A stretch of 63,982 bases of DNA, counting the filler, from Basidioascus undulatus (Eukaryota): the NCBI GenBank assembly GCA_000826855.1. It is 13 parts of 13 records of this genome, joined end to end, with 100 filler letters (N's around TTAATTAATTAA, not from the genome) between each part and the next. Parts side by side here need not be neighbours in the genome. Positions count along the whole stretch, not along the records: positions 33,451 to 57,564 come from JTLS01000248.1; 12 more parts are not named here. One strand, 5' to 3'. The notes below the pieces were generated by a model. That model was not told the DNA's origin. It did no database searches and worked only from the letters and a program-made list of their open reading frames with translations. Position 1 is the first letter of the stretch. Every line of letters begins with the position of its first letter. Both the position numbers and the translations under genes were made by a program. This document shows, piece after piece, positions 13,470 through 54,825 of this stretch.

Positions 13470-13600
13470 GGAGGCCAGGAGGACAATAGCTTGATGGAAG
13501 GGACAAAGGAAGGCAAGGAGGTGGACAGAGGACAATAGGTCAAAGGAAGGCAAGGAGGTGGACAGGAGGACAATAGGATGAAGGAAGGTGACAATAGGGA
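13470..13600. repeat. Short degenerate tandem repeat (GGACAATAGG..AAAGGAAGGCAAGGAGGTGGACA units)
   Basis: Several imperfect ~36-40-bp purine-rich units, adjacent to the decayed retroelement. Confidence 0.6.
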
Positions 13601-13654
13601 GAGGGTAGAGGAAGGTGTAGATGTCCTTGGTGAAGGGAGGGAGGGTATTCATGA

Positions 13655-16037: not shown

Positions 16038-16662
16038 ATGCCAGGCCCCCTGCCCGTGCCCGTCGCCATTGCGCCGACGCGGCCGTCCGTCTACCCGCAC
16101 CAGCCCTCGTCCGGCTCCCGCACCGATGGCAGCGGCTTCCCGCTCCACCCGTCCTCCTTCTCCCGCTCCTTCGGCGCACCGGGCAGCTTCATGTCCATGA
16201 CCATGGGCAGCCTCGGCAGGGACTCGCCCCTGGCCGCCATGACGGGCCTCAGCGGCATGGGCAGCAGTCCGATGTTCAGCAGCCCCGCGATGGCCATGGC
16301 GAGCGCGTGGGCTAGGGGAGAGGGCAGGCAGGTCCAGGACGAGTGAGCACTTTCTTGTCTCGGTGGGCCGCTCAGGAACCGGCGCTGATAGGTCGATGTG
16401 ACAACAGTACCGCGCCTGAGGCGCCAGGGGGGATGTTTGGCATGTCGGTCGAGTCCGATGGCGGTCAATATCTGCCCAAGCTCGAGGCCAACTTCGTACG
16501 CATCATTGCCGTATAATCTACTCATGCTGTGGTGGCTCACCCTGCATCTTCAGTGCCGCAACTTCACCTGCTGTGGCCTGCCGCTCGCGGACCTGCACGA
16601 TCTCGTGCAGCACTACGAGACGCACCACGTCGTGTCTCCGCCTCCCGCGTCGTCCTCCCCGA
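16038..16662 (+). CDS. SFP1: Split zinc-finger transcription factor Sfp1, 5' part
   Basis: Splicing across the introns at ~16343-16408 and ~16496-16553 gives YLPKLEANF/CRNFTCCGLPLADLHDLVQHYETHH, the Sfp1 N-terminal signature. The start codon is uncertain. Confidence 0.85.
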
Positions 16663-16762
16663 NNNNNNNNNNNNNNNNNNNNNNNNNNNNNNNNNNNNNN
16701 NNNNNNTTAATTAATTAANNNNNNNNNNNNNNNNNNNNNNNNNNNNNNNNNNNNNNNNNNNN

Positions 16763-20008: not shown

Positions 20009-20108
20009 NNNNNNNNNNNNNNNNNNNNNNNNNNNNNNNNNNNNNNNNNNNNTTAATTAATTAANNNNNNNNNNNNNNNNNNNNNNNNNNNNNNNNNNNN
20101 NNNNNNNN

Positions 20109-23348: not shown

Positions 23349-23448
23349 NNNNNNNNNNNNNNNNNNNNNNNNNNNNNNNNNNNNNNNNNNNNTTAATTAA
23401 TTAANNNNNNNNNNNNNNNNNNNNNNNNNNNNNNNNNNNNNNNNNNNN

Positions 23449-26687: not shown

Positions 26688-26805
26688 NNNNNNNNNNNNN
26701 NNNNNNNNNNNNNNNNNNNNNNNNNNNNNNNTTAATTAATTAANNNNNNNNNNNNNNNNNNNNNNNNNNNNNNNNNNNNNNNNNNNNCGCCGGGCCGGCT
26801 TGCAG

Positions 26806-30022: not shown

Positions 30023-30122
30023 NNNNNNNNNNNNNNNNNNNNNNNNNNNNNNNNNNNNNNNNNNNNTTAATTAATTAANNNNNNNNNNNNNNNNNNNNNN
30101 NNNNNNNNNNNNNNNNNNNNNN

Positions 30123-33350: not shown

Positions 33351-33450
33351 NNNNNNNNNNNNNNNNNNNNNNNNNNNNNNNNNNNNNNNNNNNNTTAATT
33401 AATTAANNNNNNNNNNNNNNNNNNNNNNNNNNNNNNNNNNNNNNNNNNNN

Positions 33451-33567
33451 GGCCCCTTCCCGCTCCTGTATCCCCTCCTGTTGCCCATTAGCGGCCCTTC
33501 TCGCTCCTGTACTCTACCCCTCCTGTTGCCTATTAGCGGCGTCGCATGCAGAGCTCTTAACGCCTAA
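33451..33567 (+). repeat. Direct repeat, copy 1 (second copy at 37769-37840)
   Basis: GGCCCCTTCCCGCTCCTGTATCCCCTCCTGTTGCCCA..GCGTCGCATGCAGAGCTCTTAACG occurs at both sites; copy 1 has an extra internal tandem unit. Confidence 0.85.
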
Positions 33568-34179
33568 CCTACATGTCAAGTCCGTCCTGGAGCAGGACAG
33601 GCGGATAGTGAGGGAGCTCTGTGAACTACGGCCACCCGGCAGTCCTCACCTGACCAGGATAGCTAGTATTATAGACTTGGAATATGCCTCCTATGTGTCT
33701 CTGGAGCTGGCTAGGTATGTACACAAGGCCTGCAACCAGCACTGGCTCTGGAAGACTCTCCACGACGGCCTGGGGGTGGATGCCACCCAGACACAGACGG
33801 CGGTGGTACCCCGACTCTACCACTTTCATTCTCCCCTCATTTCCTTCTTCCCCCTTGTTTCTTCCTCCGAAGCATGAGCGATCACGGTCTTTGCCGAGCC
33901 GGCCACTGGGCGGGCAAGGAGATGAGCACATGCACTACTAGGGGCTTGCCGTTCGAGAGCATATGCGCGTAGTGGCCCGTCTCCGCTTCCTTTCCTCTCC
34001 CGAGACCATGCATGGCGGTGCGTCTCCGCTTCCTTTCCTACTCCGAGACCATGATCTTTCATCACCTTGCGTTGGGTACCCGCTGAGCCGGCTTCAGCAG
34101 AAAAGGTAGCGATTACTTCATCCTCCGCTCTGAGGACAAGGCGGGCAATCGGATCCAGATGATGCGCTTCTGCTTCTCT

Positions 34180-34186
34180 TATTTAA
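34180..34186 (+). promoter_or_regulatory. Putative TATA box of the micro-exon gene
   Basis: TATTTAA lies ~65 nt upstream of ATG 34251, which is in a CAAAATG context. Confidence 0.45.
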
Positions 34187-34250
34187 GAAGCACCGCAGTT
34201 TTGCCAGCCTCTTTTCAGCACACTCTCGAAATCATTGCCGAGCTCCCAAA

Positions 34251-36322
34251 ATGCGTTCCTCCACTCAGACCCTCTTCGTCCTCGTAGCCATTGCTGTGTC
34301 TGCCTCAGTCGAGGTCCTCGCCCTTCCGCAGGTGAGTGTTGCCCTGCCGAATCCTGAGTTACAACGAGGCACTGACGCTGGTGGTGGTATCCTGACCGTC
34401 TCAGACCGTACGTGTTTCCCTGCTGAGTCCTGAGCTTACAACGAGGCACTGACGCGGGCCATCGTCTCCCTGTCGTCTCAGGCCGTACGTGTTTCCCTCC
34501 TGAGTCCTGAGCTGCAACGAGGCACTGACGCAGGCCGTCGTCAACCCATCGTCTCAGAGCGTACGTGTTTCCCTCCTGAGTCCTGAGCTGCAACGAGGCA
34601 CTGACGCGGGCCATCGTCTCCCTATCGTCTCAGGGAGTACGTGTTTCCCAGCTGAGTCTTGGGCTTACAACGAGGCACTGACGCGGCCATCGTCTCCCCA
34701 TCGTCTCAGGCCGTACGTGTTTCCCTCCTCAGTCCTGAGCTTACAACGAGGCACTGACGCGGGCCATCGTAACCCCATCGCCTCAGAGCGTTAGTGTTTC
34801 CCTGTTGAGTCCTGAGCTTACAACGAGGCACTGACGCGGGCCATCTCTCCCTATCGTCTCAGGGAGTACGTGTTTCCCCGCTGAGTCCTAAGCTTACAAC
34901 GAGGCACTGACGCAGGCCATCGTCAACCCATCGTCTCAGAGCGTACGTGTTTCCCTCCTGAGTCCTGAGCTGCAACGAGGCACTGACGCTGGCCATCATC
35001 TCCCTATCGTCTCAGGCCGTACGTGGTTTCCCTGCTGAGTCTTGAGCTTACAACGAAGCAATGACGCGGGTCGTGGTATACCGACCGTCTCAGTTCGTAA
35101 GTGTTTCCCTCCTGGGTCCTGAGCTTACAACGAGGCACTGACGCGGGCCCTCGTCTCCCCATCGTCTCAGTGTGTACGTGTTTCCATGCTGAGTCCCGAG
35201 CTTATAACGAGGCACTGACGCGGGCCATCGTCTCCCCATCGTCTCAGCGCGTATGTGTTTCCCTCCTGAGTCCTGAGCTGCAACGAGGCACTGACGCGGG
35301 CCATCGTCTTCCCACCGTCTCAGGACGTACGTGTTTCCCTCCCGGGTCCTGAGCTTACAACAAGGCACTGACGCTGGTCGTGTTATCCTGACCTTCTAAG
35401 ATCGTACGTGTTTCCCTGCTGAGTCCTGAGCTGCAACGAGGCACTGACGCTGGTCGTGGTATCCTGACCGTCTCAGTTCGTACGTGTGTTTCCCTGCTGA
35501 GTCCTGAGCTGCAACGAGGCACTGACGCGGGCCATCGTCTCCCTATCTCTCAGGGAGTACGTGCTTCCCTGATGAGTCCTGAGCTGCAACGAGGCACTGA
35601 CGCGGGCCATCGTCTTCCCATCGTCTCAGAACGTACGTGTTGCCCTGATGAGTCCTGAGATTGAGGCACTGACGCGGGCCATCGTCTCCCCATCGTCTCA
35701 GACCGTACGTGTTTTCCTGATGAGTCCTGAGCTTACAACGAGGCACTGACGCGGGCCATCGTCTCCCCGTCGTCTCAGGCCGTACGTGTTTCCCTCCTGA
35801 GTCCTGAGCTGCAACGAGGCACTGACGCGGGCCATCGTCTCCCCGTCGCCCCAGAGCGTATGTGTTTCCCTGCTGAGTCCTGATCTTCAACGAGGTACTG
35901 ACGCGGGCCATCGTCTCCCTATCGTCTCAGGGAGTACGTGTTTCCCTCCTGAGTCCTGAGCTTACAACGAGGCACTGATGCCGGCCATCGTCTCCCCATC
36001 GTCTCAGGACGTGCGTGTTTCCCTGCTGAGTCCTGAGCTTACAACGAGGCACTGACGCGGGCGATCGTCTCCCTATCGTCTCAGACCGTACGTGTTTCCC
36101 TCCTGAGTCCTGAGCTACAACGAGGCACTGACGCGGGCCCTCGTCTCCCCATCGTCTCAGTGTGTACGTGTTTCCCTCCTCAGTCCTGAGCTTACAACGA
36201 GGCACTGACGCAGGCCATCGTCAACCCATCGTCTCAGAGCGTACGTGTTTCCCTTCTGAGTCCTGAGCGGCAACGACGCACTGACGTTGGTCGTGGTATC
36301 CTGATTGTCTCAGGCTTCCTAA
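34251..36322 (+). CDS. Micro-exon gene: small secreted peptide of 54 aa from 27 exons, 25 of them single codons
   Basis: Exon 1 is 34251-34331 (27 codons, signal peptide, ends phase 0 at CAG|GTGAGT). 3-nt exons: 34405 ACC, 34482 GCC, 34558 AGC, 34634 GGA, 34710 GCC, 34787 AGC, 34863 GGA, 34940 AGC, 35016 GCC, 35094 TTC, 35171 TGT, 35248 CGC, 35324 GAC, 35401 ATC, 35477 TTC, 35554 GGA, 35630 AAC, 35702 ACC, 35779 GCC, 35855 AGC, 35931 GGA, 36008 GAC, 36085 ACC, 36161 TGT, 36238 AGC. The last exon is 36314-36322 GCT TCC TAA. Confidence 0.85.
34332..36313 (+). repeat. Tandem array of 26 intron units (69-75-nt intron + 3-nt exon, ~77-bp period)
   Basis: Consensus GTACGTGTTTCCCT(G/C)CTGAGTCCTGAGCT(TA/G)CAACGAGGCACTGACGCGGGCCATCGTCTCCCCATCGTCTCAG+NNN. 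Confidence 0.97.
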
Positions 36323-37768
36323 CTACCGAGCGCTCAAGCGGCCAACGTCTCCTGTTCTGTCAGGGGCAGGGGGTGAAATAAGAGGGAAGTGGGAGAAGAA
36401 GGGGGGTTAATTCCGCTTCCCATGTCGATTGGGGTCTTGAATGCAACATTTGTTATCAAGAATGCCTCGACCAGCGCCAACCAGGTGCAGCACCAGCTCA
36501 TCCTATTTTCTCGATTTCGTGCCGCCAATCTGCAAAAAAGGTCCAATGCTAGAGGTCTGGGGCAGCGTCTCGATCCAAGCGGGCGGCCAAAGAGACGCCC
36601 ACGGAGCTTAGCTAGGACCTCGGGAGCAAGGGTCTTGTCCTTGGCTATTGCAAGCGGGTCGTAGCCATGACGGACGAGAAAGCCGAGCTTGCCCATCTGG
36701 TCCTTGATGGCAAGCAACTCGTGAACGCACCCACATGAGTAACTGAAGATCTTGGAAAGCGAAAAACGTGCCGCAGCAAGACTCGTCTTGAGCTGGGTGA
36801 GCGGAAGGCGGGTACGCGGCGGAGGTGGCCTCTCGCGTTGTTGTTTGGCGTTTGAGCGCTCGTCGTACCTGGCTCTCGTCTCTGCGTCTCTCCTCCCTCA
36901 CATCACCACCTTAAGTGTCCTCCTCCCGCTTCTGTCGGCTACCCTGTCAGTGTGTGCAGCCTCCCAGTGGGCAAGAGCAAGTGGCATGAAAAAGGAACGA
37001 AGGGCGGCGGATAATAAACTACTATATTGCGCAACAGGGATACGAGGGAGGACAGCGTGTATGATCCTACATCATTGCGAGCGAAGTAACAGTAAAATGG
37101 GTTAGAGCAGCAAAATACGGAAAGAAGAGGCACGAAAGGCGAAAAAGCGGGGCAAAAGATGGGCGGTGGCGGATACGTGTGTGTGCCTATGCAAAATGCT
37201 AAGAGTGAGCCCAAAGGAAAAGGAAACAGTGAAGAAAACGATACCCCAAGAATAGGAAAGAAAAATGGATGGGAAACCGTCGAAAACCGTGAGACAGCTA
37301 AAAGCGGAGGCTGTGATGTGCGTGCGAGAACTGAACTGGACGGCAAAAAAAGATGAGGGGCAAACGCCAAAAGACGAGGAGAAAGGCAAGCAAGAGGAGG
37401 CGAAGAGGAGAGGAACAATTAGAGATAAAGGTCAACGCTTCGTGTGTGGGTGAGAACGTCGATGAGAGCGCACATTGTGTCAAGTGTCGCCCCTTCCGCC
37501 GGACCCACACCGCCTGCGTCAACACAGCCATCGCCACCACGCTCCCCGACACCCCCATCACCCTCGGCAATGACCACACCATCCCCGGCATCACCCTCAT
37601 CGACCGCCTCCTCAACGCTGCCCCCCACGTCGCCAGTCCCGTCCTCCGCACCATCAAGTCCACCCTCTGTCAAGCATCTGAACACCGTGTCATCCATGTC
37701 ATCCCTACATAGTCTATTCTTCTCCTGCTGGTGCAAAGCCTTCGCTCACGTGGTTTCGGTGCTGGCCT

Positions 37769-37840
37769 GGCCCCTTCCCGCTCCTGTATCCCCTCCTGTT
37801 GCCCACTAGTCGCGTCGCATGCAGAGCTCTTAACGTCTAA
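37769..37840 (+). repeat. Direct repeat, copy 2 (matches 33451-33567)
   Basis: Near-identical to the contig-start sequence. Confidence 0.85.
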
Positions 37841-38944: not shown

Positions 38945-41042
38945 ATGCGCAGCTTTCAAAACCTGCGCGGGCTTGCCTTAACATGGGCGATCTCAATCTC
39001 TTCTGGATTCTCCTTCCTCCTGTTCGGATGTGAGTGCGGCGCTCCTCCAGTTCGAGCAAAGATGGGAGGGAAGGCGGCTGATACGTTCCTTGGTCTCTGC
39101 GCGCTCAGACGACAATGGTGTCATGTTCGTTCTTCTGCCTGCTTCTCCTAATAACCGAGACTATCCTGACAGTCATTCTTCGCATCGTCCGGCTTTCACA
39201 GGGCCGGCTTAATCACGACCAAGCCATTCCTGACTGCCATGAACAATCCCGGTGCCGGAACTGTTGGAACGATAGTGGCCATTTATAACCTGGTGGGTGA
39301 AGGATCGGTCTTGCGACGATAGCGGGATCGGCAGGAAATTGACGAGCGAATCAAATTGCCTCGGGCTGTGTACAGGGATGCTTCTTCGGATGCGTGGTGA
39401 GTAGCATAATCGGGTTCAAAATCGGGCGCCGCAGGACGATCATGCTGGGCTGCTGGGTCAACGTCGTCGGTGGGTAGACCCCATTTTGAGCTAGTGGGCA
39501 GGTGGCTGAAGTCGACATCGGATATCGACGGGCTCCGCCGAACTCAACAGGCACCCTAATCCAAGCCCTCGCCTTTGGCGTCCCTCAACTCATTGTTGGC
39601 CGCATCGTTACGGGTATCGCGACCGGATTGATCACGTCTTCGATTCCGATCTGGATATCTGAGACCTCGCCCGCTTCCGAGCGGGGCGGCCTCGTAGCGG
39701 GACAATTGGCCATCGTCAGTCTAGGCATCACTATAGCCGACGGCATTGATTTTGGCATGAATTATATCGTAGGAAGCCAGGCAGCTTGGCGTGAGCTTCG
39801 CCTTTTTCCTCGTCGCTCGCGTCTCCGACATAAGCTGAAGCGTATGCACCGGTCACCCTGACACCTCACGCAGGCTTTCCCATCGCCTTCCAGTGTACCT
39901 TTGCACTTCTCACGCTTTCGACCGTACATTTCCTTCCCGAGTCGCCTCGATGGCTCTACGCTGTCGGTCGAACCGACGAAGCCGACGAAGTTCTCACGCG
40001 TCTCAAGGACCTTCCCTTCGACAACGTGGACGTAAAAGCTGAACGCACGGAAATTCTTAGCGCCATCGAGTACGAAAAGACGGTGCCGAAGATGGGAATT
40101 CGAAACATTCTCCGCGGCAAGGGCGAGCTCAAGATCATGCGCCGCATCATGACAGGTTTTGCCTGCCAGTGGTGGCAGCAATTCACTGGTATTGGTGTCG
40201 TGATTGGCTATCTGCCGTTGGTAATCACGAACCTCTTGGGCTTGTCGGAAACGCTCGCCCTAGGCCTGGGCCTGGTTTCGGCGGTCGTCTACACCATCGC
40301 GTCCATCCCTCCAATCTTCTTTGTCGACCGTATTGGGCGGAGGAAGGGCTTGATGTTGGGCAGCACTGCGATGGCCGTCTGTTGGGTCGCCTTTGTCGCC
40401 CTAATCACGCAAACTCAGAGCAAGGCTTGCTTATACGCTGCTGTGGTGATGATCTACTTGTTTCAGATGTGTGTCTGCACCGTCTTTCCCTTCTATTTCG
40501 AGCGAGCAAAGCAAGGCTTACCCCTCAATTCTTTCTTGTCAGCGCCTTCGCCTTTTCGTGGCTCTCAATCCCTTGGATTTACCCTTCCGAAATCACGCCC
40601 CTTGCCGTTCGCCACGTCGGAGCGGCGGTCGGCACTTCCGCTGAGTGGCTGTCGGCCTTCCTTATCGCCGAGGTCACCCCGCTGGCTTTGAAGAACGTGG
40701 GCTGGAAGTTTTTCTTGGTGTTCGCTGTCATGTGGTGCGTGTTCGGGGGAGACCCTACCTCGACGTCGATCGTGGATTCTTTGTCTGGTCGTATCTCGAT
40801 TTGACACCAGCTGATCGCTTCCATTCCTCCTCATGTGCAGCGTCGCAGGCATTCCGTTGGTCTACTTTTTCTTCCCTGAGACGGCCGGCCTCTCTCTCGA
40901 GGCGATCGATCTCATGTACGCTTCCGGTCGGCTCACAGGCGGCATCGAGGAGCAGCGAGAGCAGGCTGGTCGCAGGCACGAGATGTTGGAGAAGCAGGCG
41001 AAAGCGGCAGTGCATGTAGAGTACGCAAGACGGCGAGACTAG
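38945..41042 (+). CDS. MFS sugar-porter family transporter (Stl1-like)
   Basis: LTWAISISSGFSFLLFGY/DNGVM; KIGRRRTIMLG; QLIVGRIVTGIATGLITSSIPIWISETSPASERG; PESPRWL; QQFTGI; VDRIGRRK; WIYPSEITPLAVRHVGAA; VYFFFPETAGLSLEAID. Confidence 0.93.
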
Positions 41043-41649
41043 CTCAGTTTGACGTCCAGGTGGGACGGTGTTTGCTGAAGAGGACACGTTTGTAAGGCCA
41101 CAATGATTGAGGCGTATTCGATGGACTTGCCCGTGGCGAGGAGAGCGAGAATCGGTGACTTGCACTGCTCTTGGTCCTTACTGCCTTGGATATACACATG
41201 CATGTGAAGGCAAACGCCAGCAAACGGAGGCAGACACACTAATGCTCAAGACAAAGACAGGATGAACACGAATACAATGGTAGTGAACAGTTTCTGTGCG
41301 CATTGTGATAGTCGGCGTGTCAGGGCTCGGGAGTGTTCGCCTTTGGCGGCTATCGGAATCAAGATACTCTTATGGTGGACCGTTCAAATATCGTTTCCGT
41401 TTTTACCGCAGAACGGAGACGAAAAATATGTGATGAGGCAGGGCACGATAAGAAAGGATACGAAGCAATGGGGCCTCTTCCCAACTGGGGACAGTGTCAG
41501 ACGCGAACCTTCTTTTTAGCTGAGCTAGAGTGCAGCCCTAACCCTTTGCTTGTGCCATCAGGCGTCTTCCGATTCAAAGTCTAGAAGGTAGGTATTACCA
41601 AAACACATTGCATTGCATAAACCCAGAGACAAGGAGACACATCCGACAA

Positions 41650-43457
41650 TCACGACTGCTTCCACTCCCGCTTGGACAATTTAACATATAGGTCTCCAGG
41701 ATTCTGGTTGAACCTTTCTACGAGAGGCAAAACGAAGTCTTCTCGCTCCAGCTGCCAGTCGTAGTTGTGCACGAGGGTAGCGATGAGGATCTGTTGTTCG
41801 AGATAGGCGAGGTTGCGGCCGATGCACGCGCGCGGGCCCTGCGAGAAGGGCATGACATACTTGCGCAGATTGGCCGACTCGGGCGAATCCTCGAGCCAGC
41901 GCTCCGGGCGGTACTCGTAAGGATCGGGGAAGAGCGAGGCGTTGTGGTGCAAGGTGTAAGTCGGGACCGATACGGTGATACCGCCGGGAATGAATTCGCC
42001 CTGAGAAAGAAAATAATATAACCGATCAGGAAGCCAGAACTAACAGCCCCTCGGGGACAGAGCTTCAAAAATGACAACGATCTGGCGCCAACGACTCACA
42101 GCGATCCATGCACCTTCCGGCGGAGTGACCCTTGGCAATCCGAGGCCAGTCGGAGGCCGGTCTCGCATCCCCTCGTCGATGCAAGCCCTCAAATACTTGA
42201 GTCCCTTGACCTGATCGTACGTCGCAATGCACCTTTCATTGCCGAGCGTCTCATCCAGCTCCGCTCGTAGCGCTTGGAACACGCGTCGATTCTTGATGAT
42301 GTGGTACATGACAGATGTCATGGCCGTCGCGGTTGTATCCGAGCCGGCGTTGATCATTACACCGGCCTCAGCGACGGGCTCGCGGAAGGGCAGGTGGAGG
42401 TCCTCGCCTTTGTTGTCGACGAGAAGGTTTCCCCAAAAGTCGCGGAATTCCGGTTCGTGCCCGAAGCGCTTGCGGATCTTGCGAATGCAGAGGTCGGTGA
42501 ACTCGGCGCCCCCAACGTTACCGGCGTGCCATTTCGTGAGCCACTTGGTCCAGGGGAGAAATTTGGGCCAGTGGGCGAGGATGACGTCGTAGCGCGAGTT
42601 GGTGTGGAAAGCGCGAATGGCGTTGGTATAGTAACGTCGTCCCGAGTCCGTCTCCGCTTCGACCAGATCGGTGCCGGAGTCGAGAAGGTTCGTACAGTCG
42701 TCATAAGCGAGTTTGGTGATGACGTCGAACGTGAAGAGATTGAGCCACCAACGAAGATTGAAGAGGGAAGAAGCGGCAACAGGCGTCGCGGGGTCGGATG
42801 TAAAGCCGTCAAACTTGGACAGGAGCGTCTCGATCTATTGCAAAGAAAATAAAGAAGGGGAGGGTTAGCCTTGACACAAAGAGATACGTGGATGAGCAAG
42901 GAGGAGGGCTGTGTTCACCTTTTCTCGGATATTCGGTTCCATATCCACGATGCTTTTCTGGGAAAACGCCGCGGCGATGTACTTCCTCTTCCTGGAATGG
43001 TCTTCCCTGCTCCTCGTCCCCACGATGCTCTTGTGCTCATTGCTTGAGAAGGTCTCGTAAAATACGTCCTTGAGCATGGGAGAGCCGTGTCCGTAGATTG
43101 CGGAAACCGCATCGGGATGGTTGAAGGAAACATGGGTAGGCTGAATTTTGATGATGGGCCCCAGCTTGGCGTGAGCCTCATCGACGGCGATGGAACGACG
43201 GAGGAACCACGAGTGATACGCCGCCCAGAAATTGGAGAAGCCTGCTATGGACGTTGCCGGAAAGCGCCGGAGACCGTATGGGTCGCCTAAGTAGTACACA
43301 AGGCAGCGGATAATCGCAGCCAGAACAGCGAAGGCGAAAACTGCAGAAAACGGCCAAAACACGTCAGCGTCGGCACGGTCTCATGCGGCAAAACGTGTCA
43401 AGGGAGTGTACTCGACACAATCATGCCTGAAAGACGATGCTGAAACTCGATGAGCAT
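41650..43457 (-). CDS. Cytochrome P450 monooxygenase (CYP53-clan / benzoate 4-monooxygenase-like)
   Basis: N-terminal anchor + DPYGLRRFPA; I-helix INAGSDTT; K-helix EGMR; PERW; heme motif PFSQGPRACIG. The start (MLIEFQH.., 43457) is inferred across an intron. Confidence 0.93.
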
Positions 43458-43791
43458 GGCAAGTTCAACGCAAAAGAGACGGTTAATGCGAATCACTGTG
43501 ATATCCGGTGAACAAGAGCGACTCATCCCCTTCAATAAATACCTGCTCCCGAGCCCTCAGCTCGAGAGGTGGCCAGAGGCGAGGTTGAGGTACGACGAGC
43601 ATCACAGTACGATACGGCCAACTTGGCCCAGCCGGGCAAGACCTTCCTGGGCGTTGAGAGAAGCCCGTCCGGTGACCAACATAGCGCGCTCGGAGCGAAG
43701 ATGACTCCTTCTGACGGCTGAGCGGTCGTCGTCTCGCGAGGTGTACTTGTGGACCTGAGCGCTCATACGGATCTGATTCACGAACGAGGAC

Positions 43792-43841
43792 AACTTCGGC
43801 TCGAACTTGGACCCTCGAACAAGAATAACTTCGGCTCGAAC
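43792..43841. promoter_or_regulatory. Duplicated 15-bp motif AACTTCGGCTCGAAC in the divergent P450/ADH promoter
   Basis: Exact copies at 43792-43806 and 43827-43841, each with a CGG triplet; TATAAA at ~44063 upstream of ADH. Confidence 0.45.
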
Positions 43842-44166
43842 AGAGGCATGCCGTGGCGATCGCCCGAGACACTTGCCTAATCGGGCGAGTTTACGCGCCG
43901 CGGCTGCAGGTCATCCGCGGGCAGCTAGTGGACCGGCTCGCTGCATCTTCTTCTGTTTTGCTTGCTCTTCTTGCATTGGGGAGATCCGAAAGCATGAAGA
44001 AGGATCACATGGGTCGAAGAGTAGAATGTCGGAGCAGACAAGAGTTTACAAGGTACGTCGACTATAAAGACAGCACCAAGGATACCCAGACGGGCTGGCT
44101 ATCGCTTCCCTCCTACGGACTCTCCCCGCTTCATCCCCTTTGCCGCTCACCAACGCACATTTTACC

Positions 44167-45693
44167 ATGGTTTACCCTGACACCTTCAAAGGCTTCGCCT
44201 CGCACTCCCAGGAGCGGTGGTCGGATTTCAAGCTCCTCGAGTACAAGCCGCGTCCTTTCACGGAGTTCGACGTCGACGTCAAGATCTCTCACTGCGGAGT
44301 GTGCGGGTCTGACATCCACACATTGAAGAACCAAGGTGTAAGTTGCTTCTCCGTGGCTCCGTGATGTTCTCGCGCTTCCTGGGGTGCATGTCCTTCCAAG
44401 ATCGTTGCTAACTTCCCGCACGTTACCCTGCCGGCACACTCTCCCCAAGACCTGGATTGGCACGAAGTATCCCATCGTTGTTGGACACGAGATCGTGGGC
44501 AAAGCGGTCAAGGTTGGCTCCAAGGTAACCGACATTGCCATTGGGGACAGGGTCGGTGTCGGCGCCCAGATCGGCTCTTGCGGTGACTGCAAATTCTGCA
44601 AGAACGGGAATGAGAGTGAGCCCCACATGGCGCTACGCTTGCTCTTCCCCTTGCTTTTCCGCTTGAACCCACCCCGCTAATGCTCCCGCGGTTTCGAAAA
44701 GACTACTGCAATGTCAGGATGATTGACACGTACGGAACCACTTTCGAGGACGGCACCGTCCAGCAGGGCGGCTACGCCAATTACATTCGTGCGCACACCC
44801 AGTTCGCCTTCAAAATTCCTGTGCGCCCCTTTTTTGTCGGTAACGGTTTCGAACCTTTTGACAGTTCGCGCTCACTTTCATGTCGTCTTTTCCTCTGTCC
44901 ACAGGATGATATCCCCTCCGATATCGTGGCACCCATGCTCTGCGGAGGCCTTACTTGCTTCTCTCCGCTAATCCGCAATGGTGCTGGCCCCGGAAAAAAG
45001 GTCGGCATCGTCGGCATCGGTGGCTTGGGACACTTCGGTGTCTTGTTCGCCGCTGCACTCGGCGCGGAAGTGTACGCCATCTCGCATTCGACTAACAAGA
45101 AGGAGGACGCGATGAAGGTGGTCTTTGTCTCCCATATTGACGATGGCGAACGTATCGAATCTAACTTGTCACTCGCTCTTGTGCAGATGGGCGCCCACCA
45201 CTTCACTGTCACCTCTGAAAGGGGATGGGCCGAGCCCCTTCGTCATGAGCTCGACCTGATCATCTCCACCACGAATGGCAGCAAAGACTACCCTCTCCAA
45301 GAGTACCTTTCGCTTCTCAGCGTTCACGGCAAGTTCATCAGCGTGGGCCTGCCCGAGGCTCCTTTCCCGCAAATCCGCTGCCAGGACTTCATGTCTCAGG
45401 GAGCGCTCATGGGCGCGTCTCACATCGGCAATAAGGCGGAGGCTTTGCAGATGCTCGACCTGGCTGCCAAGCAGAACATCAAAAGCTGGATTCAGCCCGT
45501 CAAGCTGTCCCAGGCGGGCTGCAAAGAGGTTCGTGGGCACGTCCCTCTTGCTTCTGCATCTCTTTCTTCTCTTGCTCACTGACTAGGGATTTCCGACCCT
45601 CTTGACTACCAGGTCGTGGAGTCGGTCTTGGACGGCAAGGCCAGGTACCGATACGTGCTCACCGACTTTGACGACGAGAAGTTTGCGAACTAG
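44167..45693 (+). CDS. NADP-dependent zinc alcohol dehydrogenase (CAD/Adh6-7 type)
   Basis: CGVCGSDIH; GHEIVGK; GDRVGVGAQIGSCGDCKFC; APMLCGGLTCFSPL; GIVGIGGLGH; ends GKARYRYVLTDFDDEKFAN* (TAG 45691-45693). Confidence 0.95.
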
Positions 45694-47525
45694 ATACACG
45701 ATTCTATAAACCTGTACGGGCCGGGAATTACAGGGTATAGACGGAGCCGGCCAGGGCAAACATGATACAGATCTTGCAACTCTGTTTCGTCTTCACAGAG
45801 AATATTCATATATGCGCCCTTCTTTTTGTTCGGCTCCGAGAAGGTCGGCGGAGCCGCGCTTGTTTCTCCTGGAAAATTCCGCCAGCAAAGTATATCCAAT
45901 GGGGTGCTAGAACAAAAGGAAAACGAGGACAACAGAGAAGAGGGAAACGGCCGCTAGTGCCAAAGAGGCGACTCGAGTATGCCTGTCCAGGGGCGGACCT
46001 CCAACCGCGATGAAGATCATCTACCCTCTGCCAAGGTAGTCCATTCCTTGACGCATGATTGTACCAGTCCTCCGCCAGAGCTTTGAGCAAACCGACCAAC
46101 TCATTCTCTCTGGCAAGGGCCGCCTGAGAAGCCTCCTCCTGCATGGCCAACTCGGCACGGCAAGGAAAAGCAATGGTAGGTTTTCATCCGGTAAGAAGCC
46201 GATGGACGCTTCGAAAGCACTCATCAAGATCAGTAATATGGAGGAGGCGTGCTGCGAGGCCAACTGTTGCTGGTGTCCTTCGATCGCTTGTCGTTGTGCG
46301 GAGACGACGCTTGCGGAATGGACGGTGCAGTCTTTAACGGTAGTACGGTACAAACCTCGCGAATTAAAATCAGGATCCAGTGTGTGGATATTTGTATAAT
46401 GCGAGAGAACGAGACGAAAGAAGAGGAAAGAGACAGGTCAAGAAAGACAGATTGACCGGGGCGAAGCGAAGGTTGCGAAGCAAATGGCACAAAGGGGGAT
46501 CGTTCTGAATCCGCGGGCAGGCTCGTTCGAAGGCTGCAAGGTACGAACGCACCGAACACGTAATTGGGCACTGAGGTCGTCATAAATGAGCCTATGCGAC
46601 GATGTAGGACGCTCTTGCTGGGAGACCAAGCGGGTCAGCGTAGTTCATCCATCCACGGCGTCCTCATGTCACTCCACCTATCAGTGACCCAGGCTTCACT
46701 CGCCTTTTCATGTTCCCTAGTCGCTGCCTCGTCATGTCTTCTTCCCTGGTTTGCATGAGCAACTTCCTCCGTGCATGTCTGCATGCCAGCAGTGACGGCC
46801 GGTTCCGTTTCAGTCCCAAACAGGGTGGAGGCTTCGCGACTTCTGATCGCCCTGCTGTCATCTCCGAAGTGCGAGAATGTTGCAGGCGCATCAAAGAATG
46901 CGCTGATTGGAGAGGACGGCGGCCCAAGAATTAAGTTTTTTACGACCGGATTATAGCGTGGACTTTGAGCCTCCAGCGGAAGAAGAAGAGAGAGATGCGT
47001 GAACACCGTTCTGGGGCGTTAGAAGGGCGAGCTGCGGTGGTCAACGCCCCGCGCTCGGCACCTAGTCGCCTACTTCTCTTTTCCCTTTTCGGCCTTCCGT
47101 CCTTCTTTCCATTCCGATGTAGTTGTCTAGGCCTCAGACGACGACGTAATAGTATACAACAGCTGGAAGGGCCAGCTTCTGGCCGAGCGCAAACTGAGTT
47201 GACAGCGACGTGCGGAGAGGGCACGACTGGCCCCGGTCATCACGGTGAAGGATGCCATGCATCCGCATTGATTCAATGGAGCAGTGGTTGTGTGTGGTTC
47301 CTTTGGGGCCCTCCACAGATGAGACTTGCAGGTGATCGGGATGCCGAGGCGAAATTGGCGGTAAGCAGAAGAGCAATGTCGTTCGCGCTCGGAGCTGATG
47401 GAAGGTTACAGGAAGACACCTACATGAGGCCGCGCGCCGCTCTATCAAGCTGTCAAGCGCACGTCGCCGAGGCCCTGATCATCAGACCACAGACCATTTA
47501 TTGACTCTCCTGCGGCTCTTGGTGC

Positions 47526-50347
47526 CTACCCCTGCTCGCTCGTCCAACCCCAATCGTCCAACAACCCCTTTACGATCGCATGCACTGGCCAAGCCGTCTC
47601 CCCCTCAATCTCTCGCAAAATCTGGATGAGCATCTGCCTCTCTCGGGAAGAGCGCAGGCATTTTCCGGCTGTCGAGCGATTTCCGGCGCAGGAGAAGGCA
47701 GTACATCAATGCGATTTGCACATGAAGACGCCCGACACGAAATGAGGGGGACGACGAGGGGACACGTACCCAGTGCTAACTGTTGCGTCGCGCTGATTCT
47801 CGCGCTCTGACATCGATTCGTGACCGAAATTCCGCAAATTAGTCTGGCGTGTTTGAGGATCTCCTCCTCCAGGCGCTGAAAGAAGCGGAGGCCTGTAAAG
47901 CCGAGCGAAAGGCCGGAGGAAGGGAGGGGGGCAAGGCAGTGCGTGTAGAGTAGAAACCGTGCCATGTGGTATGACTGCATTCCCGCCACTGGTAAATGGC
48001 CGACTCGTCAGACATAGATGGTTGTGACGCAAAACGTAGAAAGAGGGAGATCGAGTGCAACTTTCTGCTCACCGTGCCAATCCGAAAGGAGCCCTACGGG
48101 ATGAAGAGAGCGGCACCAGTTAGATAGACCTCACAGGCGGTGCAGGCGAGACAGGACACTCACAGACTGATGGGAAAGGGTTGGTCTCTCCTTCGTCTGC
48201 TTCCGCATACCAAAACGGCTGAAACCCGGGTGGCAAGCTTTCCTTCCAGCCCTCGACCGCGCCCTCGAGGTCTTTCCACTCCTCCCGTCTCTTGTCGTCG
48301 TTCGTCGTATTCGGCCGACTGAAGCAAAAGTTGATCACCTTGGCCAGCAAGTAGTATATTCGGTTCGCCCACATCTCATCCGACGTGGGCGAATGCAGAT
48401 CGACCGAAGTGAGGAAGCATGAAGACAGATCGATGATCGTCGGCCGGCGGTGTTTCTCCGCCTGCAACAGAAGCATGATCTTTGGCACTAAACGAGAGTA
48501 TCGAAGCGGAAGACGGGACTCACCCAAAGGATGTCCTGACGCAGGAGAACCCAAAAGGCCGCCTTGCGCAGCTCATCCGACTCTTCGCAGATGCTTTCGA
48601 CGCCAATCAGCGAGCATGAGCCGAGGAGGTGATGTTGCAAGTCGGCACCGGACGCTGCCAAATTGTCCATGTGAGTACTCAGTGACAGTCGTGCCCGAAG
48701 AAACGGAATATGCGAACAAGGAACGAGAAAGCCTTACGTTCCAACATCTCGTACATCCTCAGAATCGTCATGGCCGCCAGCAACTCGCCACTTGACGCGC
48801 CACGCCGATCCTGCAGCATAGGAATCATATCCCTCACGCATTCCGAGTGGTAGTATTCGGCAATGAGGCCGTCCATGCACTCGAGACGGGAGAGATGTCG
48901 AGCGCTAAAGGCCAGGATGGCGTTGAGAAGAACAGGATACGAGAAAGCTCTCTCCGGAATGAGCGTCCCAAAGTGTCGGCGAGAGTCTGTCATGTCGAGC
49001 TGAGAGCCGAGGAGAAAGGTCATGAGAATATGGAGAACACATTCGAAAGCGGTTTGGTGACTCACCCATGGTCCCACTACTTCGACGTAATGTCTCATCA
49101 ATCTCATCATCAGTCGATCCCCCCGTGGAATCCTCCTGGTCACCCTTCCCTCCCTCTCTGATGTCCCCAGGTCCAAGGCTCCGTCGCGCTCGCCGTCTCC
49201 CCGTGGTAATGCGATCTCGAGCGCCTCGTTGTAACCCCTTTCAATCTCGTTCTGGTGGCTCACGACCTGGTCGAGCAGCGAAGAGAGGTCTAGCGCGGGT
49301 TGTTCCGGCGACGAAAGGATGGGATCAAACAGGCTGTAGATCTGGACCGAGAAGGGTAGGTTTGGCGGTGAAAGGGTCGTATCTGTAGTCGTGAGCGGCT
49401 CGGAAGGGCGATGCGGGCGATCTGAGCCGTCCTGAAAGTCGCGAGTAAGAAAGGTGGACAAATCCAAGCTGGATGGCAAGCCTTGGCCGTTCGCCGACGG
49501 AGAGAGAAGTGGCGGATGATTAGGGGGAAGAACGAGAGGCGAAGACGTGTTGTGTGAGACCGGAGCGGTGGTGTCTCCTTCACGAGCCGAACAGGTTGTG
49601 TCGGAGACGACGTGCAGGGTTTGCACCGCCATCGCCCCATCCATCGAGGCATCCGTTGTCCAGCGAGAGGCGTCTGCGTTAAGGCTCGGAGTTGCGAGGG
49701 TTTCTCTTCCTCTTGGGACGTTCGACGACAATACAGATGACGGAGAAGGCCTTGAGGGACCATTGACCCGGGAGGTAATGTATCCCGACGCTACCTTGGA
49801 GGTTTCGTCGACGAATTTGAAACCGACTGCTATCGCTCGAGTAGCAGCGTGAGCTCGAGCCTACGCTCTCATATGTTGTAGAGAAGGGAGCACGCACGCG
49901 GAGATATATTTGTTCGTTTCCCGGACCCTCCCACCGAGCCACCATGCAGAACGTTGTTCTTTCGTGGACGGCCGTTCCCAGAATGTGAGTCCGTGTCCAC
50001 GCATTTTCGCCTTGATTTCCGACATCGTTCGCATATTGGCTTAGTCTCGTCGCCTGTCGGCGGTTCACAAGCGCAGGCGGGTCATCGAAGCTATCAGCTC
50101 AAAGCGCAATGGTCAGGAAACGAGAATGACAACAAAACTTCACATTTCAGATGCCTCTGTCGGCACGTAAGACTGTATGAGGATGAACGCGCGTGAGTTT
50201 TCCAATCGAAATCAAGCGCGCACGAGGGACGACTTACCACCCTGTTCGGTCCCTCCGCAGGGCCTTGCCTTGTCCTGTTGCCGTCTTGGGTGGGCTCGGG
50301 CGAGCGGCGCCGTCCATGATGAGAGTCGAGTCTGGCGAATCCACCAT
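47526..50347 (-). CDS. Zn(II)2Cys6 transcription factor with fungal-specific TF domain
   Basis: The spliced DNA-binding cluster reads RDRTG/CLTCRQRHLK/CDETKPICERCRKSRRKC. The middle region has LMRHYVEVVGPW/LDMTDSRRHFGTLIPERA..LLNAILAFSARHL and LRKAAFWVLLRQDI; it ends ..LLDDWGWTSEQG*. Confidence 0.9.
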
Positions 50348-50874
50348 ATTGGTGATGGGATTGTTCTGCTGGGTTAAAGAAGAGGGTCGACGAACGAGAG
50401 GGGAATCGAGGGGAAAAGGCGTGGGCGGCAAAGCGGAGGTATCTCAACGTGCCGGGCCGGGTCGTCGGTCCGGGTGGCAAAAGGCGGATTCAAAGGTTTG
50501 GCATGCGGCGACTGGGAAAGGGCGAATGTAGAGTGGACCCAGCTGACTTGTGTAGTCCGCCCAAGCATGTGAACACACAATTAGACTCTCATCATCGTCT
50601 CATTGCCAGGTTCCACCTAGACTAGAATCCACAAGTCTAGCAACGGGGCATTCATCATGATAAAGCCGCAACTGACAACCCTGTTCCCCCAGTCAAAGAA
50701 TTAAAACAAGAGCCCTCAATTCCACCTGAGTGGGTCAGCCACTAGGACAAGAAGATGGTCTTTTGACACATGACTATAGACAATAATGCAGTCAATAGGT
50801 CATTTTGTTTTGACTGACTTGCATTGCACAAGGGCTTAACCTGCAGGATTTAAGCATGTGCAACCTGTAAGTAC

Positions 50875-51882
50875 CTAGTAGCCCCCTTCTTCAAGGGCGA
50901 GCTCTGCGAGCCCGGATGTAGGAGGTAGTTCGGGAGGGCCGATTGGGATGCGATTGGTGGAATTCGAGTACCAGGGAGTCGTCATCATCGAAGTCATCGG
51001 CAGAAACCCAGCTGCGTTCCTCGGGGCCATAGCCAGCCCAATCGACCAGGTACTGTAACTTCCGGCGGAAAAGGCGGGAGTCGAGGATGCGGGATACTTC
51101 ATACTCCTCCTCTCCTTCGGCATTGATGATAGGTGGAGGCGGTATGGAAGCAGAGCGGGAGGGGAGGCGGAGCGGGGGGGATGGACTGCGTGTGGAGCGA
51201 GGGGAAGTGAGATGGATAAGGTGAGGACAGGTGGAGAAGGGCAGAAGGGGGAGGACGCACCGGATTGGTATGAGAAAGATTGGGGGTCGGAAGGGTCTTC
51301 GCGTAGCTCCGCGAGCAGCTCGTGTGAGATGGGACGGTCGGGGTACTTCTTGAGGACCTGCTCCCAACCATCGCATACAGCGCATCCCAATTCAGCTCCA
51401 GATTATTTCGAAGTATGAGGAAAACAAGGGAGCGAGAAGGGGAGGAAGACGCACCCGCTTCAGATTATCGCAGTACCGCCACTTCGCCTCAGCAGGCGTC
51501 AAGTCCCTCTGCTTTGCCCAGGCATCCCACTTTGCGCGGCCGAGCATATCAAACATCCCCGGCCTCGAGCCGCGCACGTTGCCCTCCGTCGCTGCATCAC
51601 CACATCCGCCACCCTACTATCAGCCCTCCTGCTCAGGGGGGAGGAAGACGCCGGGGGAAAGAGGCGCACCCTGCTTGTACAGGCTGTACATCGCCAGCTT
51701 CTCCTCGTAGCTCGTTTGGATTGGGCCCGTCTTGGGTAGTCTGGCACCATCCCACCCCCACCCGATGAGTTCCCAACTCTCGATGCATGGAGGGGTCAGG
51801 AGACGCACGACTGCACGATCCTGACAGCGCGATCGAAGCGCGCGTCGACGCCGTGCGCGCTCGCGTGCGCGCTGGTCGACAT
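50875..51882 (-). CDS. Acyl-CoA-binding domain protein; last exon runs into the gypsy remnant
   Basis: [103 protein letters not shown].. The predicted last exon ends at TAG 50875-50877. Confidence 0.8.
50878..51140 (-). mobile_element. Ty3/gypsy (chromovirus) pol 3' remnant: chromodomain + polypurine tract
   Basis: [59 protein letters not shown], immediately followed by GAAGAAGGGGGCTAC (PPT-like). No integrase or LTR is visible. Confidence 0.85.
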
Positions 51883-52376
51883 GGCGTCTCAACTGTGCAA
51901 TTGTGGATGGGAGATAGGAAGATGCTGGAGTTGGAGATGCAGGAGGAGGAAGAGAGAGCAAGCGAGCACGGAGGTCGGTGGCGGCCAACAGACCGGCTAC
52001 AGTACCGCGCGGTGGGCCGGCGCAGCTGCCGTTTTGTCGTTCACATGCTGCGTGGGCGCGGGCTCAAGCTTGAGCGCTGGGTTCGCGACGGCTGTAATTT
52101 TTTTGAAGGTATATCGGGATGTATATTTGTGCCGTTCATCAAAGCTGATTAGAAGAAAACAAGTGAAAAGTAGTGCGAAGAAGTCAAGGGGTCGAACTAC
52201 CGCGGGACTCCCGAGGACCGCATGCGCTGCAGTTTTCCCACGAACTTCTGAACTTGTTCCCCCCGGGCTCGTCCTTGTCTTCTTGCCTCGCTCCTTCCCT
52301 TCTTCTCCTATCGATTCCTCTTCCGTTCCTCTCCTAGATCCTTCCACTCTCACCACACGCTCCCCCTTCCCCAACG

Positions 52377-53486
52377 ATGGCCGCCGACGACCGCTTCGCC
52401 GCCTCGATCTCGTGGTCCGACGACGACGCCCCCGCTTCCCACTCCGCCGCCCCCGCCAGCGCCTCCCCGGGCCTCCACTCCTCCTCCAAGAAGCGCAAAG
52501 CCTCCGCGTCCCCCAAGCTCGAGGACGAGGAGGAGGAGTTTGCCCCGGCCCCCGCCCCCGAACCGGAAACGAAGCCGGGCATCATCTACATCTCGCGCAT
52601 CCCGCCCGGGATGACACCCGCCAAGGTGAAGGCTATCATGGCGCAGCATGGGGAGGTGGGGCGGGTGTATCTGCAGGCTTCTCGTGCGTCTTTCCTCCCC
52701 CCATTTCCACCCCATCCCCATACCCACCTCCCTTCTCCTTATTCGTTTCTCCATTCTCTTCTTCACTGTCTGCGATTCTAGGACTGATATTGAGAAATGC
52801 AACTCGTCTAGCCAACTCCCATCCCCGCCGCCCGCACTACACCGAAGGCTGGGTCGAGTTCGCGCGCCGGCGGGTTGCCAAGCGCGTCGCGGCGCTGCTC
52901 AACGCCCAGCCGATCGGGGGCAAGAAGGGCGACAAGTGGCGCGACGACGTGTGGACGATGAAGTACCTTGGCGGCGGGTTCAGGTGGGGGATGCTGAGCG
53001 AACATGTTGGTGCGTCTTTCCCTTCTTTTCCTTCCTTACTTCTCCTTCTCCTTCCTCGTTGTCCTTCCTCCTCCTCCTCCTTCTCTCCCTCTCATCCTTC
53101 CTTCTCCCAAGCGACAGCAAACTGATGACATGAGATGGGACGAAACAGCCTATGAAGCCGCTTCGCACGCCTCTCGCCTGCGCGCGGAGCTCGCGCAGTC
53201 CAAGCGGGAGCAGCAGGACTACCTCCGGCGTGTCGAGCGGGCTCGGATCCAATCCCAGAAAGCCGAGAAGGCAGCCAAAAAGTCATTCACCTCCACCTCC
53301 AACCCCTCCTCATCCTCCACCGCCGCCTCCGCAGCCAAGGCCGCAGGGGAGAAGGGCTTCAGGCAGCGTGGCGTGGTGGATAAAAAGCGGAAGACGGGGG
53401 CTGCGGCGGGGGAGGCGGAAGAGGCGAGGGGGAAGGCGAGGGGGAAGGGGAAGGTCGCGGACGTGTTGGGGAGCGTATTTGGGTGA
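52377..53486 (+). CDS. ESF2: Pre-rRNA-processing protein Esf2 (ABT1 family)
   Basis: [118 protein letters not shown]. Confidence 0.95.
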
Positions 53487-54644
53487 GGGGATGGAGGCAT
53501 GATCTTCGTCTGCGGACGAATTGGCAGGACGCTGTGATGCTGTGCTTGAGGGGCCTCGGGCGGTGGAGATAGGTTGCGTTGCGGGCGGTGCGGAGTCTGG
53601 AGCTGGGCGTGAGCTGGCCTCTCATTGGACACCGTCCCGTTCTCGCTACTGCCAGAGTAACCAAGCCTGCTTTGCTGTACACGGTTCTTCATTATGCAAG
53701 CGAGGGGAGAGCCAAGATGCAAAAATGGGATAAACAGTGCCCGCCTTGTGGCACACCGTCACGAGCGATTCGTACGCAAGATTCCCCCAGCCGGAAGTCA
53801 TTGGCTCCTACTGTTACATCTACATCTATTAAGGGACCCTAAGTCAAGTATCCAAATAAAATGCAGCTTTTGCTCCACAGATGACGATGTACAACTTGTA
53901 CTCTGCACTTCGTGCTCTCATTCCACCGCAGCTTGAGCATACCGCTGCGGCCAGCGGCCATTACTCCAGTCCCTCGGGGCTGCTCCCTGACTTATTATCC
54001 CTGGTCCAAACTTTCGAAATGATCACAAGTATGACAGAGCACGAGACGGTTGTGCTAGCGCGGTGGAGATGATAGGGGGAAGTGGTGCGGTGCAGTGCAG
54101 TGGCCGCTGCAATCAGAGAAAACCCATGGCAACAGCTATCTGAGCGGACCCTTCCTAGGCCGGCGTCTATATCCAAGGGAGGCCCAGCCGCCTCAACGCA
54201 ACCTCACAGCTGCAACTGGAGCTGGCTGCAAGCTGGCGGCCGAGTCGGGAAACCGCAAAGACTTGCTGTAGTTCTCACACGCCCACACAATAACGAGGCA
54301 CAGTTTTGCGTGAGTCTAGGTAAACCTCATCACAATGATTACCTCTCTTCCCGCTCTGTGAAGGTGCAGCAAGTGCCGGAGTTCAGCAACTTGGGCCTGG
54401 CCAGCTGGTTCCTTTCTGGTCGACAAGCAGCGTGCACAACACAGAACGCTTGCTGGCAAGCGGCGTGAGAGCACAGCTGGATTAGGGGCTGCATGCCCAT
54501 AAAAATTGACGGAAAATGTTGCTCCCTTTGTGAGTGTTTAATCTTTATCAGCCCTCTGCTGTCAAAAGACCAGAGGCCGATCGCAGTGTTTGGACTGAGA
54601 GATGTCCCTTTAGATGTAGGGGGGGTTCGTAGGTCCGTTAGAGC

Positions 54645-54698
54645 AATGGCGGTGCACCCCACCTCCATCAAAATGGCGGTGCACCCCACCTCCATCAA
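54645..54698 (+). repeat. Perfect 27-bp tandem duplication
   Basis: AATGGCGGTGCACCCCACCTCCATCAA x2. Confidence 0.85.
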
Positions 54699-54825
54699 AA
54701 TCCGCAATACCGTACTGGTCTCTTCTGAGCCACCAGCAACAAGCTCGACTTTCGAAGTTCGACGTTCGACCTCTACAGCACTTTCTCCACCCCATCGCCA
54801 GCACAGAGGCCCTTTACTCTCCAGC

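Follow-up and report, generated by a model that had tools for sequence, protein, structure and literature searches.

Micro-exon genes (MEGs) of Schistosoma encode secreted products and are built from exons of 3-81 bp, in multiples of three, which are separated by introns of up to 5 kb (PMC10526429; bioRxiv 10.1101/2023.06.21.545858). Isolated exons of three nucleotides (nt) have been described elsewhere, two of them in lipS of the fungus Dactylellina haptotyla (PMC5639578) and one in human MAP4K5 (PMC8632122). Iterated introns are present in spider silk genes (PMC9779670, PMC1885213), and introns can be gained by tandem genomic duplication, in which a segment carrying splice signals is duplicated and supplies an extra spliceable intron (PMC4974935). 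Here we analyzed a 63,982-nt stretch of DNA from the fungus Basidioascus undulatus (assembly GCA_000826855.1), referred to below as the window, and describe a tandem array on its plus strand (34332-36313, contig JTLS01000248.1) that consists of 26 intron-like units parted by 25 spacers of 3 nt. Judging from its sequence, we propose with moderate confidence that this locus is an extreme micro-exon gene for a small secreted peptide, which would have grown by duplication of an intron together with one codon.

Schistosoma MEGs resemble the locus in having a signal-peptide exon followed by very short exons in multiples of three, whose skipping keeps the frame. They differ from it in their long introns, the absence of tandem copies, exons that are mostly longer than 3 nt and a flatworm host, whereas in this fungal locus all internal exons would be 3 nt long and the introns of ~73 nt make up a minisatellite. 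By analogy, the locus would work like a micro-exon gene; we claim no membership of the MEG families, and homology across kingdoms is not expected. The isolated exons of lipS and MAP4K5 indicate that the spliceosome, including that of fungi, can include a 3-nt exon. These genes are reported with one or two such exons each, between unrelated introns, whereas the array has 25 in a row between repeated introns. The SNORD115/116 arrays (SNHG14) and the silk genes share with the array a whole intron inside the repeat unit and introns that are more alike than the sequence between them. However, their units are kilobases long, the small nucleolar RNA (snoRNA) arrays are non-coding with an RNA gene in each intron, and the silk exons encode long repeats. 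Tandem-duplication intron gain is the growth mechanism that we propose for the array; the known gains are single events that duplicated exon sequence, whereas here an intron plus one codon would have been reiterated ~25 times. A tandem array of introns parted by one-codon exons was not found in the full-text literature searched.

Tandem Repeats Finder (TRF) described the array as 25.6 copies of a 77-nt period with 85% matches and a higher-order period of 153. A script parse of the array identified AG, 3 nt and GTNNGT at the expected spacing at 25/25 internal boundaries. The units are 69-75 nt long (73 nt in 13 units, 74 nt in 11, 75 nt and 69 nt in one each), and every one of the 25 spacers, defined as the 3 nt directly before the next intron start, has the same length. 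All 26 donors conform to GTNNGT, including GTACGT (20 units), GTATGT (two units), and GTGAGT, GTTAGT, GTAAGT and GTGCGT (one unit each). All 26 acceptors end in AG, 25 of them as CAG and one, in unit 14, as AAG. The branch word is CTGAC in 24 of the 26 units, CTGAT in unit 22 and ATGAC in unit 10, and the branch A is located 29 nt from the intron 3' end in 23 units and 28 nt in the other three. No long reading frame crosses the array on either strand. With the exception of unit 18, retention of any unit would introduce a stop or a frameshift (14 units contain an in-frame stop, and lengths of 73 and 74 nt shift the frame), while skipping of a spacer leaves the reading frame intact.

Units 1, 10, 14, 15 and 26 are characterized by a GGTCGTGGTATCCTGACC-like 3' third, which replaces the pyrimidine-rich tract of the other units. 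A second CTGAC is located 9 nt from the acceptor in units 1, 14 and 15, CTGAT occupies this place in unit 26, and unit 10 has no such motif. The GGTCGTGGTATCCTGACC-like form may be the ancestral form of the intron, because both edge units carry it.

To measure how changes are distributed, we aligned the 26 units, each as an intron with the following 3 nt, using MAFFT. The 74 intron columns contain 162 variant cells; 24 of these columns are invariant and 44 have at most one variant cell. No variant cells fall in GT, G5T6 or AG, and two fall in CTGAC. In a permutation that drew an equal number of columns at random from the intron, this sparing was significant for GT and AG (P=0.009), for the same set with G5T6 (P=0.0008), and for the set further extended by CTGAC (P=5e-5). 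Because the units are related by duplication, we also counted parsimony events on a neighbor-joining tree of the units. The intron columns underwent 99 events (1.34 per intron column), none of which affected GT or AG, compared with 6.2 expected (Poisson 0.002; permutation 0.0096), while the 11 signal columns underwent two events compared with 16.9 expected (Poisson 7e-6; permutation 9e-5). Events along the donor hexamer number 0, 0, 3, 5, 0 and 0; variation is therefore confined to +3 and +4, which are also the two donor positions that differ among the seven introns of a neighboring MFS sugar-transporter gene.

The array is not young and its units had time to decay, because no two units are identical and the mean intron difference is 0.141 per site (range 0.027-0.311). 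The closest pair has two differences, and the alignment contains at least seven indel positions in introns. The argument that selection has kept the splice signals in all 26 units is thus supported statistically, and a neutral satellite is disfavored. By itself, constraint on splice signals fits a coding micro-exon gene and a non-coding host transcript with introns as its product equally.

The spacer is the most variable three-column window of the unit, with 36 of 78 cells variant compared with 24 in the next non-overlapping window. Its three columns contain 15, 14 and 7 variant cells and underwent 10, 9 and 5 parsimony events (24 in total, P=7.5e-5); 11 distinct states are present across the three columns after AG in the 26-unit alignment. 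Spacers differ by 0.604 per site and introns by 0.141. For the most similar introns (difference of 8% or less, 32 unit pairs), the corresponding values are 0.573 and 0.061, and therefore near-identical introns precede different triplets. Spacer positions 1 and 2 change at a higher rate than any intron column; thus, either constraint extends over all 74 intron positions, or selection makes the triplets change or keeps them different. Changes in the array are not spread regardless of function, as they would be in a neutral minisatellite, the signal columns being depleted (P ~1e-4 to 1e-2) and the spacer enriched at the significance given above.

A previous model-made reading of the same DNA (the sequence-only reading) had listed the same units, donors and acceptors, and its counts proved exact. 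It had also stated that the branch motif is retained, that donors vary only at tolerated positions while many substitutions and indels occur elsewhere, and it had proposed a comparison of rates per column, with the 3-nt exon expected to be the most variable. The results above bear these statements out, and splice columns show far fewer changes than the other intron columns. Equal conservation of splice and other columns, the outcome that the reading had named as speaking against it, was not observed.

As candidate codons, the 25 spacer triplets include AGC (5), GCC (4), GGA (4), ACC (3), TTC (2), TGT (2), GAC (2), CGC (1), ATC (1) and AAC (1), and none is a stop. These 10 triplet types specify 10 different residues (random-triplet null, P=0.032), and eight of the 10 end in C (null P=0.0008). 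Third-position C accounts for 44% of 551 codons in three neighboring genes; by codon use in neighboring genes, six of the 10 triplets rank first among the codons for their residue and the other four rank second. Intron variants are linked to particular triplets, as the CGTCAACCC variant precedes AGC in 3/3 units and the GGGCCCTCG variant precedes TGT in 2/2; this linkage supports a duplication of intron-plus-codon blocks.

The putative start codon upstream of the array has the context CAAAATG. The nearest in-frame upstream stop is located at 34131, and no other in-frame ATG is present between 34131 and 34251. The predicted peptide of exon 1 contains one Arg near its N-terminus followed by a hydrophobic core (Kyte-Doolittle 9-mer maximum 3.46), its likeness to a signal peptide being judged by hydropathy and not by a dedicated predictor. 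The donor of this exon is GTGAGT. The coordinates of this exon and of the other features are given in Table 1.

The sole reference gene for the intron profile of this genome is the MFS sugar-transporter gene, 2.6 kb downstream on the same contig piece, which we modeled on a 59%-identical homolog from Saitoella. The model has an uninterrupted frame of 504 codons in eight exons, with seven introns of 74-106 nt. The introns end in CAG (7/7), mostly start with GTNNGT (6/7), and in four of seven cases contain CTGAY or TTGAC 26-33 nt from the 3' end. Among the exons is a 16-nt micro-exon (39109-39124), flanked by introns of 79 and 77 nt, that restores conserved residues of the Saitoella homolog; very short exons are evidently tolerated, and in normal use, in this genome. 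By donor, acceptor, branch and length, the array units fit the U2-type GT-AG intron profile of this genome.

Under the proposed reading, which accounts for more of the features than its rivals do, the gene would consist of a signal-peptide exon, 26 U2-type GT-AG introns parted by 3-nt exons, and two final codons with a stop. We infer that it is transcribed, spliced unit by unit and translated, and that its product is secreted. This product would comprise ~54 codons before removal of the signal peptide, the middle part being encoded by one codon per exon. Recognition of each ~73-nt unit would follow intron definition, as for the usual introns of 74-106 nt in this genome, and the introns would be excised in succession, in the simplest case from 5' to 3' during transcription. 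Sequential removal is probable because a 3-nt exon is too small for two spliceosomes side by side. Since every spacer is 3 nt long, both full splicing and spacer skipping would keep the frame. As to the origin of the array, the 77-nt unit (intron plus 3 nt) may have been duplicated repeatedly by slippage or unequal exchange, partly in multi-unit blocks, with each duplication adding one codon. Intron gain by tandem genomic duplication is the subject of the Rogers model. Later selection would have held GT, G5T6, the branch site and AG in every copy, and the triplets would meanwhile have diverged, or have been kept different.

If spliced as predicted, the locus would be the most extreme split gene traced in the literature searched, with 25 consecutive one-codon exons derived from an intron-plus-codon minisatellite. 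It would provide a natural substrate for the question of how an intron-definition spliceosome handles exons too short for two complexes, and would bear on whether the order of intron removal is forced and on whether tandem duplication can create new introns together with coding sequence, one residue per step. Genes of this kind would escape annotation, because neither gene finders nor RNA-seq aligners assign exons as small as 3 nt. It can further be speculated, as a long shot, that the array acts as a splicing-based peptide diversifier. With one codon per exon and near-identical signals in every intron, each donor could be joined to any acceptor downstream of it without loss of the frame, and a single gene could secrete a family of peptides that vary in the residues included. 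In the DNA, unequal exchange between 77-nt units could add, drop or shuffle residues singly. Peptides would then evolve in a codon-cassette mode that has not been described before.

Several observations count against the micro-exon gene. The splice columns are among the most conserved, yet not uniquely so, since 24 of the 74 intron columns are invariant as well; together with the 44 columns that have at most one variant cell, this indicates that the intron interior is conserved, or homogenized, beyond the known needs of splicing. No precedent for 25 consecutive 3-nt exons was found in the full-text literature searched, and such a series might be hard for the spliceosome to handle. With respect to the triplets, the lack of stops is a weak sign alone (P=0.49 for 25 random triplets), the constant spacer length is not significant (~0.3-0.4 spacer indels expected from the at least seven intron indel positions), and the prevalence of C at the third position may be an ancestral feature. 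The predicted product is a short peptide with a high content of Ser, Gly, Ala and Thr. A search of a database of 5.8 billion protein sequences with the read-through frame of exon 1 gave no protein that shares words with it. A metagenome scan for related arrays, using a pattern of branch word, CAG, 3 nt, GTNNGT and branch word that has 15 matches in the window itself, returned six loci, all of them unrelated satellites or chance matches, and none of the RNA runs listed contained the locus. Furthermore, the order and number of units depend on a single short-read assembly, and so does the peptide sequence. We compared 33700-37500 with contigs of two DNA runs (X1 and X2) that come from separate studies. 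The array is not bridged by any contig of either run, and the same ambiguous joints occur inside it in both. Both runs match the flanks (contigs 899 nt and 1331 nt long) and numerous pieces of the array at 100% identity, with depth in 30/30 bins for X1 and 29/30 for X2; the existence of many distinct units is solid.

Among the alternatives is a minisatellite of intron origin whose units are not spliced individually. It would arise if one intron of a small or dead gene had expanded by slippage and concerted evolution, rather than selection, had kept its motifs uniform; the array would now be removed whole, spliced haphazardly or left untranscribed. This explanation is in line with the 25.6 tandem copies of period 77 and their higher-order blocks (period 153 and the unit tree), with the 24 of 74 invariant columns that homogenization would yield, with the absence of the locus from the RNA runs listed, and with the position of the most divergent units, 1 and 26, at the edges, as under unequal exchange. 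However, homogenization of whole units cannot give spacers that are 4-9 times more different than introns, and it leaves the restriction of donor variation to +3 and +4 unexplained. With no identical units and 14% divergence, GT and AG had time to decay, and the expected 6.2 events were not seen. In addition, the product of a gene with the array as a single intron would be a signal peptide plus two residues. We regard this explanation as unlikely, though it deserves serious consideration. The conserved splice sites, the conserved interiors (44 of 74 columns with at most one variant cell) and the hypervariable spacers would be covered together by a non-coding host transcript whose introns are the products, as in tandem snoRNA host genes, the 3-nt "exons" being free spacers. 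SNORD115/116 in SNHG14, tandem introns that each yield a small RNA, provide a precedent, and in units 17-19 the CTGA of the branch motif is preceded by TGATGA, a word that resembles box C. This word is found in only 3/26 units, though, and an Rfam search of 33800-36800 at E up to 1 gave no match in the array. Nor did three single units and a stretch across the unit 2/3 boundary show excess structure over shuffles (z = -0.32, +0.81, -0.03 and -0.01). A non-coding host would also leave unexplained the ATG with its in-phase signal-peptide-like exon, the uniform spacer length of 3 nt, the agreement of the C-ending triplets with local codon use, and the stop directly after the array, and we consider it improbable.

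We give very little credence to a local pile-up of a mobile intron, that is, of an introner-like element whose target-site remnants would be the 3 nt. In its favor, the intron copies are near-identical, introner-like elements are known in fungi (PMC4457414), and a ~337-nt contig, in which unlike flanks enclose ~113 nt of unit-like pieces, gives a hint of another locus. However, no dispersed copy of the unit was found elsewhere in the 64-kb window (16 outside matches, all of at most 15 nt), none of the seven MFS introns resembles the unit, and the units have no stable fold by the z values above. Both the unit tree and the association of intron variants with particular triplets speak for duplication in blocks and against independent insertions.

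The ~337-nt contig, whose matches fall at 34399-35352 of the window, is present in both X1 and X2. Its unit-like pieces lie between 88 and 136 letters that have no match in the stretch compared, and it may stem from another locus where this intron family is represented by one or two units. The DNA run X3, which was made from the same sample as X1, contains a stretch from a second organism that is ~85% alike to 36342-36814, just downstream of the proposed gene. This relative has replaced segments whose lengths differ by 75 and 42 nt, both multiples of three, and its loose end next to 36342 resembles 36314-36342 and keeps the TAA. The 255 letters upstream have no match to the array at >=85%, which is uninformative as the units differ by up to 31% among themselves.

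Table 1. Positions of the array, of the predicted parts of the gene, and of other features in the window
Feature	Position	Strand	Remarks
Putative core promoter, TATA-like motif TATTTAAG	34180..34187	+	64 nt upstream of ATG; tentative, read from the sequence
Predicted exon 1, coding part, ATG + 26 codons (81 nt)	34251..34331	+	signal-peptide-like; phase 0 end exactly at first donor
Tandem array, 26 intron-like units + 25 spacers of 3 nt (proposed one-codon exons)	34332..36313	+	TRF, script parse, MAFFT
Intron starts, units 1-13	34332, 34408, 34485, 34561, 34637, 34713, 34790, 34866, 34943, 35019, 35097, 35174, 35251		
Intron starts, units 14-26	35327, 35404, 35480, 35557, 35633, 35705, 35782, 35858, 35934, 36011, 36088, 36164, 36241		
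Unit 14	35327..35400	+	sole AAG acceptor (35398-35400); second CTGAC 9 nt from its 3' end
Unit 18	35633..35701	+	shortest, 69 nt, 5-nt deletion; sole intron without stop and in frame if retained
Predicted last coding exon, GCT TCC + stop TAA	36314..36322	+	two codons directly after last acceptor
Possible polyadenylation signal, AATAAG	36377..36382	+	55 nt after stop; tentative
Direct repeat of ~75 nt flanking the gene	left 33495..33567, right 37772-37840	+	self-BLAST, alignment
Gene, MFS sugar transporter	38945-41042	+	same piece as array
Gene, cytochrome P450	41653-43380	-	same piece as array
Gene, zinc-type alcohol dehydrogenase	44342-45579	+	same piece as array
Gene, fungal-specific transcription factor	48682-49860	-	same piece as array
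Chromo-domain frame	50894-51391	-	same piece as array
F-box-like frame	54875-55327	+	same piece as array
Linkers, first six	3258-3357, 6613-6712, 9966-10065, 13316-13415, 16663-16762, 20009-20108		
Linkers, last six	23349-23448, 26688-26787, 30023-30122, 33351-33450, 57565-57664, 60891-60990		

The direct repeat that flanks the gene was detected by self-BLAST with 85% identity over 73 nt, and 33451-33491 matches 37769-37809 with 98% identity over 41 nt. It is pyrimidine-rich and part-duplicated at the left site (33451-33567; right site 37769-37840), with copies ~4.3 kb apart, and could be what remains of a segmental event or a small dispersed repeat. The frames of the immediate flanks of the gene gave no match to a Pfam family.

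The gene set at 38945-55327 is loosely like a metabolic cluster; no peptide-modifying family was found in it. With an MFS transporter, a P450, a dehydrogenase and a transcription factor on one piece, we considered a cluster for a ribosomally synthesized and post-translationally modified peptide (RiPP) and found no RiPP-specific family. The best protein matches are 59% identical for the MFS transporter (Saitoella) and only 45-48% for the alcohol dehydrogenase (various ascomycetes), and this fungus lacks a close annotated relative in the protein database.

The observed/expected (o/e) ratio of CpG is 0.976 in the array, 0.966 in the rest of its contig piece, 1.05 in the MFS introns and 1.14 in the MFS exons. 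The only clearly CpG-poor stretch of the window is located at ~12000-14000 (pieces 10066-13315 and 13416-16662), with an o/e ratio of 0.30-0.47 and a GC content of 0.48-0.51. With a raised (CpA+TpG)/(ApC+GpT) ratio of ~1.5 and a normal TpA/ApT ratio, the stretch shows a pattern that looks like deamination of methylated CpG rather than repeat-induced point mutation. No Pfam family was found in the frames of this stretch (11-14.5 kb). The sequence-only reading had described the array as CpG-rich, in contrast to CpG-poor repeat relics elsewhere in the window, and had concluded that it is a functional, unsilenced gene and not a neutral satellite. The CpG contrast holds only against the stretch at ~12-14 kb, a putative repeat relic, and disappears against the array's own contig piece. 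CpG content as a sign of an unsilenced array was accordingly rejected, as the o/e ratio of the array equals that of its flanks, and what stands of that conclusion is the case that the spared splice signals make against a neutral satellite.

The window is composed of 13 pieces. Each linker between them consists of TTAATTAATTAA with 44 N on either side, and this linker word has stops in all six frames. Neighbors across a linker are not physically linked, and the CpG-poor stretch is located on other pieces than the array. The piece lengths descend from 3257 to 3226 nt, and the last piece ends with the window at 2,992 nt. The array piece (33451-57564), with a length of 24,114 nt, is out of this size order.

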